A DNA stretch of 17,196 nucleotides from a virus: UHGV virus genome UHGV-0071544; one strand, written 5' to 3'. The notes below the pieces were generated by a model. It had not been told where the DNA came from and searched no databases. It saw only the letters and a program-made list of their open reading frames with translations. This document shows, in pieces, positions 3,244 to 11,183 of the stretch (within the stretch, counting starts at the first letter, position 1; every line of letters starts with the position of its first letter). Both the position numbers and the translations under genes were made by a program.

Positions 3244-3767
3244 GCCGCCCTCCTGACGCCCTGCCCGATCGCCATCAATGCCGCTTTTGATACGGTAGTA
3301 AACATCCGTCGAGGACTGATGAACGGTCGCCAAATCAGCAGCATGGAACCTTTGCTGTTTCCCTTCTTCTCCAGCCCTGTCGATGGTTCGATAAAATTAA
3401 TCCGTCCATCAGTGATAATGCGAACTTCGTCGACACTCTCCAGAGCCTTGCTGAACCATCCGACTGACATATCCTCTGGCACAAGCATAACTACCGTCTG
3501 TCGCTGTTGTATGCACTGCTCAGCGGCTTTTTCCACCCACGGCCTGATATTGCTGTACGGTGGGTTATTCCAGATTGCACCGTGGCTTACCCACTCAGAA
3601 TTGAGCGCGTCGTCGGCCTCAGTTAGCCAGTGAGCACACAGAGCATTTTTGTCGCTCGCTGCCGAATCCAGCCAGAATCCAAACTCAATATCCAGTGCAT
3701 CAAAAAGCCAAAGCGGCGTTTGCCAGCAGTCCTTGTCGTGTGCTGGCGTATTTGATTGGATAGTCAT
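3240..3767 (-). CDS. DNA N6-adenine methyltransferase (phage Dam-like orphan MTase)
   Basis: ATG 3767 (ATGA overlap with ninB stop) gives 175 aa; catalytic NPPY motif (IWNNPPYSN) and a DCWQTP-type motif; small phage MTase architecture, no adjacent restriction gene. Confidence 0.8.
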
Positions 3768-4204
3768 GCAGCCCGATCTCCCCATCTCGCTTTCCACTCC
3801 AGAGCCAGTCGCGCTTCGTCCGACCACTTAACGCCACGCTCTGTACCGAATGCCTGTATAAGCTCTAATAGCTCCGCAAATTCGCCTACACGCATCCTGC
3901 TGGTTGACTGGCCTATTACCACAAAGCCATTCCCGGCAAGGTTAGGAACAACGTCCTGCTGCTTTAATGCTGCGGTAAACACACACTTCCAGCTTTCTGC
4001 ATCCAGCCAGCGACCATGCCATTCAACCTGACGCGAAACGTCACCAAGGCAAGCCCAAAGCTTCCGATTTTGGTCTAAGCTGCGGTTGCGCTCCTGAATG
4101 GTTACTACGATTGGTTTTGTTGGGTCTGGAAGGATTTGCTGTACTGCGTGAATAGCGTTTTGCTGATGTACTGGAGATCGAATTTCAAAGGTTAGTTTTT
4201 TCAT
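3764..4204 (-). CDS. ninB: NinB (Orf-family recombination mediator)
   Basis: 146 aa; essentially full-length match to lambda NinB as recalled (MKKLTFEIRSP.HQQNAIHAVQQILPDPTKPIVVTIQERNRSLDQNRKLWACLGDV...). Confidence 0.9.
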   Translation of the reverse strand: MKKLTFEIRSPVHQQNAIHAVQQILPDPTKPIVVTIQERNRSLDQNRKLWACLGDVSRQVEWHGRWLDAESWKCVFTAALKQQDVVPNLAGNGFVVIGQSTSRMRVGEFAELLELIQAFGTERGVKWSDEARLALEWKARWGDRAA

Positions 4205-4397
4205 GACTTCCCTCTCTAACAGATTTCAGGTTATTCCACTCCGTTACCGCACTGCGATAATTCGCGGCCGCCACAGCGGCGTGGTTAGCGCAGTAGATTT
4301 GGCACCCGTTCTCCATGTCGAATATTGTCGGTGATTTTCCGCATTTACATTTTTTGGCACGCGGTGCGTCTGAACACATTCCGTTAACGGTGTCCAT
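4185..4397 (-). CDS. Small Cys-rich hypothetical protein (possible zinc-ribbon) at the ren position
   Basis: 70 aa with C8, C17, C19, C32, C36; SD GAGGGGGA 5 nt upstream of ATG 4397; lies between the tR2-like terminator and ninB. Confidence 0.5.
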   Translation of the reverse strand: MDTVNGMCSDAPRAKKCKCGKSPTIFDMENGCQIYCANHAAVAAANYRSAVTEWNNLKSVREGSHEKTNL

Positions 4398-4422
4398 CAG
4401 AATCCCCCTCGTTCTTAATCCA

Positions 4423-4451
4423 ATAAAAAAGGGCTACTGTGTAAATAGCCC
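4423..4451 (-). terminator. Intrinsic terminator after helicase gene (tR2-like)
   Basis: Minus strand GGGCTA-tttacacag-TAGCCC followed by TTTTTTATT; sits between the helicase stop (4479) and the nin genes. Confidence 0.55.
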
Positions 4452-4478
4452 CTGTTATTATCTCAGTGATGTAGATGG

Positions 4479-5855
4479 TCATACGTCAGCCCCTTGTGCA
4501 TATCGTCTGCCACGTGCAGCGGGTGCATTTGATGTTGTGCAAATCTGTCTGGCTTCATCCTGGTCACATGCAACAAAGTGTCCGTTGCAGAACCGCTGGT
4601 AAACCGTACCAAGCGAGCCAAAACGGTTTTTCGTCACAATGATTTCAGCAAATGGTGCGGCGCTACTGTTCTCGTCATATACAGCTTCCCGATAGAGCAT
4701 GATGATTGAGTCTGCGTCCTGTTCAATGCTTCCTGAATCACGCAAATCTGCGTTTGTCGGGCGTTTGTTTGGTCGCTTCTCAACATCGCGTGAAAGCTGG
4801 CTTAGTGAGACAACTGGCGTTTTCAGGTCTTTCGCCATCGCCTTCAGGCTTCCGGAGATGTGAGCAATTGCGAGGTCGTTGCGGTCTGCTTTCGGCTTCT
4901 CAATCAGACCAAGATAATCCGCCATGATGAGTGACAGGTTTGGATTTTCCTGTTTGTGCCGTTCTGCGATTGAGCGAATTTCTTCGACCGATAACCGCGA
5001 GGCATCGACTACCCATACATCCAAATCTGCAAGCTGACTCATGCCGTTAGCAACACGCGCCCAGCCTTCGTCATCCATCGATGCAGGATTTCGCAGCACG
5101 CTAACCGACATCCTCCCGGCGTTGGCAATGCTTCGCTCTGCAATCTGCAATGCGCTCATTTCCATCGAGAAAATCAACACTCCGCGCCGGACGTCAGAAC
5201 CAGGAATAACGCGGCTTGCAACGCCTTCGGCAATCTTCAGCGCCAGTTCGGTTTTCCCCATACCCGGACGAGCAGCGATAATCACCAGGTCTTCCGCGTT
5301 CATCCCTCCGGTGATGGCGTCAAGTTCTTCGATTCCGGTTTTCAGGGTATCTGACTCTTCTCCGTTCCTCAGACGCTTGTCAAGCGTGTCAGTGTAGTCA
5401 GTGATGATTTCCCCTAAGCGTACCGGTTTAACCTCGTCACGGGGCTTTCTGATGGCTGAGAGACGCTTTACAAGCTCGTCCATCGCCTGACTCGATGTAT
5501 CGATGGTTCCGCTCTGAATTGGTTCACGCATTTCATCCATGATTTCCAGCACCAGACGGCGGTGATAGTTATCCGCGACCATTCCGGCATATCCCTTCAG
5601 GTTTGCGGCACTCGGGCAGTTTTTGCTGGTCATCAGGATTGACGTGAAATGCTCCTCTCCGCACGCCTCGGCAACCATCAGCGCATCGATTAGGTTTCTG
5701 TTTCTCGCCTGCTTGCGGATAACCTCGAAGGCTTTCCGGTAGAGCGGAATTGAAAACGCTTCCGGCTCCAGCGTTGCCAGAACGTCGCTGGCGGTTGGAG
5801 TTAATCCACCAATCAGCAGGCCACCGATAACGCTCGCTTCGATATCCTGTCTCAT
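4479..5855 (-). CDS. DnaB-type replicative DNA helicase
   Basis: 458 aa; Walker [10 protein letters not shown], DnaB-family N-terminal helical domain and C-terminal RecA-like domain ([22 protein letters not shown]); start overlaps O stop. Confidence 0.9.
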
Positions 5856-6673
5856 GCAATCCCCCTGTCTGCAAACTTCCCTTCCCGTACTCCCGTTAAC
5901 GAATCTTCCCTCAGCAGGTAATCAAAATCTGCCGTCCAGCCAGTGTCGTTGTCTCCGAAGTAAAACGGCTTGGCCTGATGTACAAACGCCCTGACATACG
6001 CTCTGAAACCGTCCACGTTTGGCGTTTTCAGTTGCGGGATGATTTTCTTCAGGCGGCGTTTGCGTTTCTCGTTGACCGCAACAGCGTGTGGCAGTCTGTC
6101 ACCGACTTCGGTGTTGTAGGCGTTCAGGAAGGATTCATAGTCGATTCGTTCTGCCTTGCGACGTTCAGGTTTAACCTGCCCATCGCCGCCCCCGTTAGGG
6201 GGTAAGGGGGTATTTGTATTTATTGTCTTTTGTATATTGTCTTTTGTGTTTAGCTGACTTGGCTTATACCCATTAGCCGACTTGGCTAATGTTTTATTAG
6301 CTGTTTTAGCTAATGTTAAGCTGTCCTGGCTAATCCACTGAGAAACCACCTTGTTCACTCCGATTTTCACGCCATCAGCAATGAGGAATTTACGCTCGAT
6401 AAGCTGGCGCTTGGCAGCGCAAACATGAGTGTGATGAATACCTGTCATGGCTGCTATCTGCGTGTTTGTGAGTCGATCCATCGGCTTATTGAATCCGTAT
6501 GTCTTGCGCATGATAGCGAGCATCACCTTCAACTGCCGGACGGTTAAATCAGCCATCAGCAGACTGTCGGTAATCTCGTTAGCAACGCGCATGAAACCAT
6601 CTTCGGTATCTGCCACGCGATGCTCCACGACCTCCAGTTGAGGCCTGTAATCAGCTAACTTAACGACGCCCAT
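5852..6673 (-). CDS. Replication initiator O-like protein (iteron-binding)
   Basis: 273 aa; [37 protein letters not shown] resembles the lambda O N-terminal domain; the iteron array lies inside the coding sequence as in lambda; C-terminal part differs. Confidence 0.85.
6210..6335. repeat. Phage replication origin: AT-rich segment plus four about 19-bp palindromic iterons
   Basis: AT-rich run 6210-6249 with direct repeat attgtcttttgt x2. Iterons ttagctgacttggcttata (6250-6268), ttagccgacttggctaatg (6273-6291), ttagctgttttagctaatg (6297-6315), ttaagctgtcctggctaat (6316-6334), each an inverted repeat TTAGC..GCTAA. Confidence 0.75.
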
Positions 6674-6855: not shown

Positions 6856-7134
6856 TCAGGCCTCGAAGAATTCGCCGTTCTTCGGGGCTTTTTCTTTTGT
6901 CAGCATTCTGGCTACTTGCTTAGCCAGTTCCGCCAACTCCTCGTCTTCAACACCCCATTCAAGAACAGCCAGAAGCATTCCCATTTTGGGGATGAAGCTG
7001 TCTTTCCATCGCGAAATTTGCGATTCATTAATCCCTAACGCGTCGGCAACCTTTCGCTGACCACGTACAGCAATTCGATTCAGGATGTTGCTTGTAATTG
7101 CATTCGCTTTCTTGCGAGTACTTGTAAGTTGCAT
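6856..7134 (-). CDS. cII: CII-like transcriptional activator
   Basis: ATG 7134 with AAGGAAA SD gives 92 aa; core SQISRWK..FIPKMGMLLAVLEWGV as in lambda CII but termini diverge; track ORF start 7194 is an upstream extension. Confidence 0.85.
   Translation of the reverse strand: MQLTSTRKKANAITSNILNRIAVRGQRKVADALGINESQISRWKDSFIPKMGMLLAVLEWGVEDEELAELAKQVARMLTKEKAPKNGEFFEA
7088..7130 (+). promoter_or_regulatory. PRE-like promoter with CII site TTGC-N6-TTGC
   Basis: ttgcttgtaattgc at 7088-7101 on the plus strand, inside the 5' end of cII and oriented toward cro/cI, the arrangement of lambda PRE. Confidence 0.5.
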
Positions 7135-7213
7135 ATGTAAGTATTTCCTTAGATAACAATTGATTGAATGTATGCAAATAAATGCATACACCATAGGTGT
7201 GGTTTAATTTGAT

Positions 7214-7245
7214 GCCCTTTTTCAGGGCTGGAATGTGTAAGAGCG
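7214..7245 (-). promoter_or_regulatory. nutR (boxA CGCTCTTA, boxB GCCCTGAAAAAGGGC)
   Basis: Minus-strand boxB is the complement of plus 7214-7228 and boxA the complement of 7238-7245, between cro and cII. Confidence 0.7.
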
Positions 7246-7252
7246 GGGTTAT

Positions 7253-7462
<210 letters not shown>

Positions 7463-7479
7463 TTAGTACATGCAACCAT

Positions 7480-7543
7480 TATCACCGCCAGAGGTAAAAT
7501 AGTCAACACGCACGGTGTTAGATATTTATCCCTTGCGGTGATA
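7480..7543. promoter_or_regulatory. Right operator oR3-oR2-oR1 with divergent pR and pRM
   Basis: tatcaccgccagaggta (7480-7496), caacacgcacggtgtta (7504-7520), tatcccttgcggtgata (7527-7543), the lambda oR half-site pattern; cI ATG at 7554 (leaderless pRM transcript). Confidence 0.9.
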
Positions 7544-7550
7544 GATTTAA

Positions 7551-8267
<717 letters not shown>

Positions 8268-8379
8268 TCGGCAAGGTGTTCTGGTCGGCGCATAGCTGAT
8301 AACAATTGAGCAAGAATCTTCATCGAATTAGGGGAATTTTCACTCCCCTCAGAACATAACATAGTAAATGGATTGAATT

Positions 8380-9219
8380 ATGAAGAATGGTTTTTATGCG
8401 ACTTACCGCAGCAAAAATAAAGGGAAAGATAAGCGCTCAATAAACCTGTCTGTTTTCCTTAATTCTCTGCTGGCTGATAATCATCACCTGCAGGTTGGCT
8501 CCAATTATTTGTATATTCATAAAATCGATGGAAAAACTTTTCTCTTTACCAAAACAAATGACAAGAGTCTGGTTCAGAAGATAAATCGCTCTAAAGCTTC
8601 AGTTGAAGATATTAAGAACAGCCTCGCAGATGACGAATCATTGGGATTCCCATCTTTTTTGTTTGTTGAAGGCGACACCATTGGTTTTGCCAGAACTGTT
8701 TTCGGGCCGACCACATCCGATCTGACAGATTTTTTAATCGGGAAAGGAATGTCATTAAGCAGTGGAGAGCGCGTTCAGATAGAGCCACTGATGAGGGGAA
8801 CCACCAAAGACGATGTTATGCATATGCATTTCATCGGCCGAACAACGGTGAAGGTAGAAGCCAAGCTACCTGTATTTGGCGATATATTAAAGGTCTTAGG
8901 GGCAACAGATATTGAAGGGGAGCTTTTTGACTCATTGGATATAGTCATTAAGCCAAAATTTAAAAGGGATATAAAAAAGGTTGCCAAGGATATTATTTTT
9001 AACCCGTCACCTCAATTTTCAGACATTAGCCTGCGGGCAAAAGATGAGGCCGGAGATATTTTAACAGAACATTATCTATCAGAAAAAGGCCATCTCTCAG
9101 CGCCTCTGAACAAGGTCACCAATGCTGAGATAGCTGAAGAGATGGCATATTGCTACGCAAGAATGAAAAGTGATATACTGGAATGTTTTAAAAGGCAGGT
9201 GGGCAAAGTTAAGGATTAA
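8380..9219 (+). CDS. rexA: RexA (exclusion system sensor/activator)
   Basis: 279 aa, same length and sequence as lambda RexA as recalled; immediately downstream of cI in the pRM operon. Confidence 0.9.
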   Translation: MKNGFYATYRSKNKGKDKRSINLSVFLNSLLADNHHLQVGSNYLYIHKIDGKTFLFTKTNDKSLVQKINRSKASVEDIKNSLADDESLGFPSFLFVEGDTIGFARTVFGPTTSDLTDFLIGKGMSLSSGERVQIEPLMRGTTKDDVMHMHFIGRTTVKVEAKLPVFGDILKVLGATDIEGELFDSLDIVIKPKFKRDIKKVAKDIIFNPSPQFSDISLRAKDEAGDILTEHYLSEKGHLSAPLNKVTNAEIAEEMAYCYARMKSDILECFKRQVGKVKD

Positions 9220-9234
9220 TTATCAGGAGTAATT

Positions 9235-9669
9235 ATGCGGAACAGAATCATGCCTGGTGTTTACATAGTAATAATTCCTTACGTTATCGTAAGCATTTGC
9301 TATCTCCTTTTCCGCCACTACATTCCTGGTGTTTCTTTTTCAGCTCATAGAGATGGTCTTGGGGCGACATTGTCATCATATGCAGGAACCATGATTGCAA
9401 TCCTGATTGCTGCCTTGACGTTTCTAATCGGAAGCAGAACGCGCCGACTGGCCAAGATTAGAGAGTATGGGTATATGACATCGGTAGTTATTGTCTATGC
9501 CCTTAGTTTTGTTGAGCTTGGAGCTTTGTTTTTCTGCGGGTTATTGCTTCTTTCCAGCATAAGCGGCTACATGATACCCACTATCGCCATCGGCATTGCC
9601 TCTGCATCGTTCATTCATATATGCATCCTTGTTTTCCAACTATATAATTTGACCAGAGAACAAGAATAA
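9235..9669 (+). CDS. rexB: RexB (membrane ion-channel component of Rex exclusion)
   Basis: 144 aa with four hydrophobic segments; lambda RexB as recalled. Confidence 0.9.
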   Translation: MRNRIMPGVYIVIIPYVIVSICYLLFRHYIPGVSFSAHRDGLGATLSSYAGTMIAILIAALTFLIGSRTRRLAKIREYGYMTSVVIVYALSFVELGALFFCGLLLLSSISGYMIPTIAIGIASASFIHICILVFQLYNLTREQE

Positions 9670-9697
9670 CCCGGCCTCAGCGCCGGGTTTTCTTTGC
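9669..9697 (+). terminator. Intrinsic terminator ending the cI-rexAB operon (timm-like)
   Basis: ACCCGGC-ctcagc-GCCGGGT followed by TTTCTTTG directly after the rexB stop. Confidence 0.7.
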
Positions 9698-9845
9698 CTC
9701 ACGATCGCCCCCAAAACACATAACCAATTGTATTTATTGAAAAATAAATAGATACAACTCACTAAACATAGCAATTCAGATCTCTCACCTACCAAACAAT
9801 GCCCCCCCCCTGCAAAAAATAAATTCATATAAAAAACATACAGAT

Positions 9846-9908
9846 AACCATCTGCGGTGATAAATTATCTCTGGCGGTGTTGACATAAATACCACTGGCG
9901 GTGATACT
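9846..9908 (+). promoter_or_regulatory. Left operator oL3-oL2-oL1 and pL promoter
   Basis: aaccatctgcggtgata (9846-9862), tatctctggcggtgttg (9866-9882), taccactggcggtgata (9890-9906); -35 TTGACA 9880-9885, -10 GATACT 9903-9908. Confidence 0.9.
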
Positions 9909-9947
9909 GAGCACATCAGCAGGACGCACTGACCACCATGAAGGTGA

Positions 9948-9978
9948 CGCTCTTAAAAATTAAGCCCTGAAGAAGGGC
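9948..9978 (+). promoter_or_regulatory. nutL (boxA CGCTCTTA, boxB GCCCTGAAGAAGGGC)
   Basis: boxA 9948-9955, boxB hairpin 9964-9978, in the pL leader upstream of N. Confidence 0.85.
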
Positions 9979-10088
9979 AGCATTCAAAGCAGAAGGCTTT
10001 GAGTAGCGCGAAATGCAGCTGCAAGACAGCAACCGTGGAGATAAGCATCACGGCGCGTTACTCAAAGCTAACTGACAGGAGAATCCAG

Positions 10089-10423: not shown

Positions 10424-10675
10424 ATGGAATTTCATGAAAGTGCGATTTATGATTTTCGCGCTAACGCAAATTCAGTAAAACCACAGCCAATTGCAGTTCT
10501 TTTTAAAACAATGGGTGCGTGGGCTGTTTTATGCTTCGCCGCTGATGACACTGACGCAAGAATGGCAATAGGCCAAGAGATGGAGATGGACCCGACAAAC
10601 GATGAATTCATAATTTATGGCGCTCCATCTAATTACTTACTTGATACCTGCAACATTTACAACAAGGCTGCCTGA
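10424..10675 (+). CDS. Hypothetical acidic protein (83 aa), first gene of the cassette at the sieB/ral position
   Basis: Strong RBS GAGGTGATAT-ATG 9 nt after the N stop; no recognisable motif; followed by a hairpin plus T-run. Confidence 0.55.
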   Translation: MEFHESAIYDFRANANSVKPQPIAVLFKTMGAWAVLCFAADDTDARMAIGQEMEMDPTNDEFIIYGAPSNYLLDTCNIYNKAA

Positions 10676-10733: not shown

Positions 10734-11183
10734 ATGGAAGAACAAGCAAACAAGATTCTCGTAGAACTACTGCAAAAAGCCAGTAATGGAATAGACGCGG
10801 CTGTTTCATTTAGCCAGGCACAGATTCCTGATGTTGTTCATCAGTTGCTGCTATGGAATATGGTTGACAGTCTGATTAAAACATTAATGGCCATTCTAAC
10901 AATCCCACTGGTTTTCTGGTTTATGAAGAAGCAGTGCCAAAGAGTTGAGACAGGTAAAATCGGTGATGAAGGATATTCATGGGAGAAAGGAAATCCCAAA
11001 TACAGGCCGACAATGGTTTGGGATAGCAAAGGTGATATTAATCTTCTTATCATGCCATTGGTTGGAGTTTTGACTCTGTGGGGGATTTTTATTATTGGTG
11101 TAGTAACCAATATGACTTGGTTAAAAATTTGGCTGGCCCCAAAGCTTTACCTTATCGAATATGCAGCATCATTGGTTAAGTAA
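10734..11183 (+). CDS. Hypothetical two-pass membrane protein (149 aa), candidate superinfection-exclusion or abortive-infection factor
   Basis: Two hydrophobic helices (LIKTLMAILTIPLVFWFM and INLLIMPLVGVLTLWGIFIIGVV); same 15-nt RBS/start module as the upstream gene; followed by a strong intrinsic terminator; occupies the lambda sieB-equivalent position. Confidence 0.65.
   Translation: MEEQANKILVELLQKASNGIDAAVSFSQAQIPDVVHQLLLWNMVDSLIKTLMAILTIPLVFWFMKKQCQRVETGKIGDEGYSWEKGNPKYRPTMVWDSKGDINLLIMPLVGVLTLWGIFIIGVVTNMTWLKIWLAPKLYLIEYAASLVK

Follow-up and report, generated by a model that had tools for sequence, protein, structure and literature searches.

Phage exclusion encoded by a prophage was first exemplified by the rexA and rexB genes of phage lambda, known from Benzer's rII system. 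In a lambda lysogen, CI bound at OR1 and OR2 activates the pRM promoter, which results in the continuous expression of cI, rexA and rexB (PMC11077077). According to the classical model, RexA senses a replication or recombination intermediate, whereupon the RexB channel opens, the membrane potential and ATP are lost and the infection is aborted; the outcome for the infected cell, i.e., death or stasis in a stationary-like state, is debated (PMC12894663). The Rex targets confirmed in the literature comprise T4 rII mutants and several lambdoid phages, and the known range is narrow; by definition, the lambda RexAB system needs both proteins to exclude T4 rII mutants.

Both proteins have been credited with further activities. 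RexA forms dimers, binds DNA non-specifically and has an RdgC-like fold, and work with RexA mutants showed no correlation between DNA binding and exclusion, for which this binding is dispensable (PMC11077077). It also binds CI and DNA, and it biases the switch to lysis or stabilises the lytic state without RexB (PMC11077077; bioRxiv 10.1101/2021.04.19.439022). The interaction of RexB with lambda O is strong in two-hybrid assays, and earlier reports describe RexB as stabilising O and as keeping Clp proteases from degrading the antitoxins Phd and MazE (bioRxiv 10.1101/2021.04.19.439022; PMC11077077).

A soluble DNA-binding dimer combined with a membrane protein, as in RexAB, is also encoded by gp30/31 of Sbash, gp44/43 of CarolAnn, gp30/31 of Butters and RexABpp of the P. 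putida prophage P1 (PMC12894663). These Rex-like pairs of Actinobacteriophages and of P1 often adjoin a CI-like repressor and defend against heterotypic phages; in Butters, the effector is the cytosolic partner instead of the membrane protein (PMC12894663). Here, we analysed a 17,196-nucleotide stretch of the virus genome UHGV-0071544 (hereafter, the window), where the original prediction had placed a complete RexA-RexB exclusion operon at 8380-9697, downstream of cI.

Identity and integrity of rexA and rexB

In the window, rexA occupies positions 8380..9219 on the plus strand and encodes a protein of 279 aa, while rexB, at 9235..9669 on the same strand, encodes 144 aa. The list of open reading frames and the alignment to lambda clearly showed that both frames are intact, with a gap of 15 nt between the genes and 0 frameshifts. 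When compared base by base with NC_001416, the DNA of rexA (lambda 36275-37114), rexB (lambda 35825-36259) and cro revealed zero differences, and the RexA and RexB proteins are likewise identical to those of lambda. The prediction of two complete genes of these sizes proved exact in its coordinates, and the comparison with lambda RexA and RexB that it had proposed as a check returned identical proteins, no frameshifts and 100% identity instead of a low one.

The segment 7554-9720 was compared by megablast with 50,697 phage records, and full-length matches to lambda J02459, NC_001416 and others were obtained, covering lambda 35774-37940. The match to lambda comprised 2166 of 2167 bases, which is reported as 100.0% (E = 0). 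At the protein level, RexA coincides with chain A of PDB 8TWQ ('Protein rexA') in 279 of 279 residues. The Pfam scores were 326.8 bits for RexA (PF15969, cut-off 25) and 305.4 bits for RexB (PF15968, cut-off 27); PADLOC identified both proteins (RexA 9e-110, RexB 8.6e-61), and in PHROGs they fell into phrog_12654 ('RexA-like') and phrog_14878 ('RexB-like exclusion protein'). In the NCBIfam search, RexA and RexB were unmatched, the library having no models for either of them, while Pfam, PADLOC and PHROGs match strongly.

The Kyte-Doolittle profile of RexB displays four hydrophobic stretches, at approximately residues 6-26, 42-66, 80-108 and 112-137, with charged residues at their bounds; the third segment contains an acidic residue, E94. 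The four hydrophobic helices noticed at the outset are therefore recovered, in agreement with the published RexB topology, which also has four helices (PMC11077077; bioRxiv 10.1101/2021.04.19.439022). The rexB gene has an AGGAG as the Shine-Dalgarno sequence, 7 nt upstream.

Taken together, the reading frames, the identities, the family matches, the terminator (see below) and the helices agree in a way that cannot be chance. The Rex-like pairs mentioned above are distant homologues or analogues of RexAB, whereas the genes in the window are the lambda originals; in other words, judged by their DNA, they are lambda rexAB itself rather than a RexAB homologue. On these comparisons, rexA-rexB is real, intact and already well known, and its description as a known system rather than a new one is borne out by the 100% identity to lambda rexAB.

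Promoters, operators and terminator of the cI-rexA-rexB unit

The two genes are preceded by the repressor gene cI (7554..8267, plus strand), the first gene of the pRM operon, whose product of 237 aa contains the Pfam domains HTH_3 and Peptidase_S24. The CI protein is identical to lambda CI, and the gene carries a single synonymous change (window 7685 A vs. lambda 37809 G). The 112-nt spacer between cI and rexA (8268..8379, plus strand) is identical to that of lambda and includes a small hairpin at 8330-8349. This hairpin was considered as an attenuator or processing site and rejected, as its fold is no better than that of shuffled sequences (z = -1.85 and -1.80).

The operators OR1 (7480-7496), OR2 (7504-7520) and OR3 (7527-7543) are identical to lambda 37951-38014 as judged by coordinate mapping. 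The pR hexamers were found by a promoter scan on the minus strand (7506..7478), and pRM, on the plus strand, has the -35 TAGATA (7519-7524) and the -10 TAGATT (7541-7546), identical to lambda. By identity with lambda, transcription from pRM is expected to begin at the ATG of cI (7554), such that the cI mRNA would be leaderless. On the far side of rexB, mapping to the annotated lambda operators and direct reading placed OL3 at 9846-9862, OL2 at 9866-9882 and OL1 at 9890-9906 on the plus strand, and the promoter scan located pL (TTGACA 9880-9885, GATACT 9903-9908, plus strand). OL/pL (9846..9908) form the far boundary of the immunity cassette and are followed by the nutL boxB hairpin at 9964-9978. 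Within the repressor maintenance operon pRM-cI-rexA-rexB-tIMM, OR1-3, the pRM hexamers, the CI protein and tIMM are all identical to lambda, and by analogy with lambda cI, rexA and rexB would be co-transcribed.

The operon is closed by tIMM, an intrinsic terminator at 9668..9697 on the plus strand. Its stem of 8 bp, including 6 G-C pairs (9668-9689), shares bases with the rexB stop codon, and directly after it comes TTCTTTGC, i.e., a U-rich tail. The 51-nt context folds with -21.2 kcal/mol (z = -4.84), and 0 of 200 shuffles fold equally well. The terminator maps to lambda 35799-35824, the segment named 'timm' in published plasmids (PMC3349717). Optimal termination at tIMM was reported to require the distal end of rexB (bioRxiv 10.1101/2021.04.19.439022), and a stem that starts inside the rexB stop codon fits this requirement. 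The clean intrinsic terminator that had been described as closing the rex genes corresponds to lambda tIMM.

In lambda, rexB has a second promoter, pLIT, situated in the distal (3′) end of rexA, and rexB production goes on via pLIT after induction (bioRxiv 10.1101/2021.04.19.439022). Since the rexA sequence is identical to that of lambda, pLIT must be present in the window. It is not annotated in the feature tables of J02459 or NC_001416. A consensus scan (9/12) pointed to a candidate at 9150..9179 on the plus strand, composed of TTGCTA, 18 nt, TATACT and an extended -10 TG, which would serve rexB alone; we tentatively consider this site as the likely pLIT.

A candidate pRE for cI-rexA-rexB was found at 7112..7144 on the plus strand, where a CII-box-like TTGC-N6-TTGT (7112-7125) is separated by a 13-nt spacer from the -10 AAGTAT (7139-7144). 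The corresponding lambda pRE reads TTGCGTTTGTTTGC-13-AAGTAT, and the 13-nt spacing is common to the window, lambda and HK97. The promoter straddles the mosaic junction described below (7132): the -10 is lambda DNA, and the CII box, a 7-of-8 match, lies in the foreign cII gene. A perfect TTGC-N6-TTGC is present at 7088-7101, 24 bp upstream of the 7112-7125 box. In lambda, the CII-activated pRE transcribes the whole cI-rexA-rexB unit while lysogeny is established, at 30- to 100-fold the pRM level (PMC3349717), and its counterpart in the window may likewise function as an establishment promoter. The window shares with lambda the 81-codon 'preX' ORF (7349-7594), which is antisense to cro where the two overlap and extends over OR into the beginning of cI; preX is translatable only from the pRE transcript (PMC3349717).

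By analogy with lambda, the cI-rexA-rexB unit would be under three-way promoter control, by pRM, by pRE and, for rexB, additionally by pLIT. The original prediction had assigned rexA and rexB to the pRM operon after cI; their position, strand and order are confirmed, but pRM would not be the sole feed.

The immunity cassette and its surroundings

A local BLAST against lambda 27000-46000 matched window 7132-10001 to the reverse complement of lambda 38362-35496. This 2.87-kb cassette contains the pRE -10, nutR, cro, OR/pR/pRM, cI, rexA, rexB, tIMM, OL/pL and nutL, and it has only two differences from lambda, namely the synonymous cI base (7685) and the length of a C-run at 9802-9810, between tIMM and OL3, with 9 C here vs. 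6 C in lambda. The C-run is the sole length difference in the cassette and may reflect either an error in sequencing the homopolymer or natural slippage at a site upstream of pL. The left junction lies exactly at the cII ATG (7134-7132, minus strand), and the right one lies between nutL and the start of N.

The cII gene adjoining the cassette is a different allele, its product being 54% identical to lambda CII, and N shares 90.5% protein and 93.6% nucleotide identity with lambda N. The replication genes encode an O-like protein (5852-6673) that shares 42% identity with lambda O across an alignment of 134 residues and, where lambda has P, a DnaB-type helicase (4479-5855). The recombination genes encode Erf and an Abc2-type anti-RecBCD protein, and int and xis are lambda-like (98.5%). 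No tblastn match to lambda ren, ral, sieB or P was obtained in the window. Lambda thus shares the rexAB DNA and proteins (NC_001416 35825-37114; RexA UniProt P68924), cI upstream, tIMM downstream, OR/OL and the pLIT-bearing rexA sequence, but differs in the cI synonymous base, the 6-C run, its own cII, N and replication, recombination and nin modules, as well as in having ren, ral and sieB. The window spans the early region between the Q/lysis side and int, the late genes being outside it; none of the early-region ORFs looks disrupted. Searches of the whole window with Rfam (gathering threshold) and ARAGORN gave no matches.

The place of lambda ral/sieB, a known site of exclusion and anti-restriction cargo, is occupied by two ORFs just after N in the pL operon: 10424-10675 (83 aa, phrog_2471) and 10734-11183 (149 aa with hydrophobic helices, phrog_3054). 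In phages Gally, HK633 and HF4s, these ORFs are annotated only as hypothetical or as 'TM helix-containing protein'. A Rha/KilAC-domain antirepressor-like gene (roi-like, as in HK97) was observed at 2179-2901, in the nin region of this lambda-immunity phage.

The stretch 8380-9697 was matched in 103 of the 5426 complete E. coli genomes, in 99 of them at full length, and 99 records showed at least 99% identity; the rexAB cassette is hence uncommon (~2% of complete E. coli genomes) and almost invariant. No record in the collections covers at least 80% of the window, the exact mosaic being absent from those collections. The best chromosome match, a prophage of E. coli KE40, covers 69% of the window at 97.5%, adjoins ybhC and carries cI-rexA-rexB; it differs in having a toprim-domain replication protein and ral vs. 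the DnaB-type helicase and the two unknown ORFs here. In Shigella phage SfI and Escherichia phage ev243, cI-rexA-rexB is 99.9% identical and resides in non-lambda backbones. Phage 434, with a different repressor and also a non-lambda backbone, bears rex1/rex2 that are 99.1% identical to rexAB here. The record 'Campylobacter phage CJLB-4' (MW057783.1, 48,361 bp) is 99.9% lambda across cI-rexA-rexB, and in the whole-window search it aligned, at 98.4%, to the very 37% to which lambda aligns; it looks like lambda contamination or mislabelling.

HK97 matches approximately 61% of the window at 96.7%, with cro-OR-cI 97.9% identical and a related tIMM/OL, but has gp49/gp48 (HK97 8619-9523) instead of rexAB between cI and tIMM, the similarity resuming at window 9672. 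HK544, HK244, HK542 and mEp332 also have a lambda-like cI (~98% over cro-OR-cI) but unrelated or hypothetical genes in the rexAB slot. Because this slot is filled by unrelated genes in the HK97 group, the alignments show rexAB to behave as exchangeable cargo, with the cI-tIMM slot as a site of cargo exchange in imm-lambda phages.

The near-perfect lambda identity over 2.87 kb might also be expected if the segment were a contamination with laboratory lambda or a cloning vector, or a product of chimeric assembly, and such contamination is known in databases, as exemplified by a 'Campylobacter phage' record that is 99.9% lambda over a 2.2-kb query. We rejected this explanation, which is almost certainly wrong, on the junction positions and the matching natural prophages: both junctions are sensible module boundaries (the cII ATG; between nutL and N), and the same cassette occurs in similar non-lambda backbones, those of KE40 (at ybhC, the lambda attachment site), SfI and ev243. 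In addition, reference lambda has neither the synonymous base at 7685 nor the run of 9 C. Judged from its modules and their borders, the element is not lambda, nor did it arise as an artefact of a vector; it is a naturally mosaic lambdoid prophage that has the immunity of lambda. One may further suppose that the cassette is intact but silent, the prophage being a defective remnant that does not express the operon, all the more as the window does not reach beyond the early region. This is very unlikely, given that OR, pRM, the CI protein, the rexB Shine-Dalgarno sequence and tIMM are identical to lambda and the early-region ORFs look undisrupted. Moreover, even a defective prophage expresses pRM provided that cI is intact, and Rex expression needs only cI and pRM, both of which are intact here. 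Hence our preferred reading is that the lambda rexA-rexB cassette, unchanged and within a complete imm-lambda module, was with near certainty recombined into a non-lambda lambdoid prophage backbone.

Rex function and its consequences for the host

If the operon works as in lambda, CI on OR1/OR2 would turn on pRM in the lysogen and provide a leaderless cI-rexA-rexB mRNA continuously, while pLIT inside rexA would add rexB transcripts and keep RexB in excess. When a sensitive phage infects the cell (T4 rII mutants in the classical case, and some lambdoid phages), RexA, the proposed sensor and activator, would sense a replication or recombination intermediate, which is a candidate signal only, and engage RexB, the proposed ion-channel effector and a four-helix inner-membrane protein. 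RexB would then pass cations, and the resulting collapse of the membrane potential and ATP would halt both the infected cell and the phage. Furthermore, RexA may bind CI and DNA, thereby stabilising the lytic state after induction, and RexB may prevent the degradation of lambda O and of some antitoxins by Clp. We infer from the sequence identity that the element may be an active source of phage exclusion. As to its initial description as the classical abortive-infection system, the identity with lambda rexAB stands, but the label has to be qualified, since death vs. stasis is debated and RexA has a second role in the switch.

This second role underlies the view that lambda rexAB was mainly selected to tune the passage from lysogeny to lysis, exclusion being a by-product of altered energetics. 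RexA, which binds CI and DNA, would then lock the lytic state, and RexB would be a membrane hub stabilising the replication protein. The uncoupling of RexA DNA binding from exclusion (PMC11077077) speaks for such a view, and so does the occupation of the cI-tIMM slot by other genes in HK97, HK544, HK244, HK542 and mEp332, which indicates that rexAB is dispensable for the switch itself. However, the Rex-like pairs of Sbash, CarolAnn and the P. putida prophage P1 give measurable defence, and several of the lambda-specific partners of RexA and RexB are missing or diverged in the window (the O-like protein is 42% identical, and ren is absent), even though the cassette shows base-level conservation. 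We regard selection mainly for switch tuning as rather unlikely, and we retain the reading of the locus as the lambda rexAB cassette with its predicted exclusion function.

In lambda, ren protects the phage from Rex, i.e., it allows lambda to grow where Rex is present; NC_001416 annotates this gene as 'Ren-like exclusion protein'. The presence of rexAB without ren (interval 3764-6673, P-to-ninB) raises the question of how the phage avoids its own Rex on induction. If Rex senses lambdoid replication intermediates, the phage would have to be Rex-insensitive by virtue of its own replication module, or else bear an unrecognised anti-Rex function, for which the unknown ORFs 4185-4397, 10424-10675 and 10734-11183 would be candidates; we consider this highly improbable. 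Should it be true, such mosaics would offer natural experiments in the search for the Rex trigger, which has long been sought. That the ren-less mosaic leads to anything new is unlikely.

Being an exact copy, rexA-rexB in the window carries little weight as a discovery. Its value lies in annotation: the pair identifies an imm-lambda lysogen, for which lambda immunity as well as the exclusion of T4 rII-type phages are predicted. At the same time, the element documents that cI-rexA-rexB-tIMM travels between differing lambdoid backbones as one module with base-level conservation.
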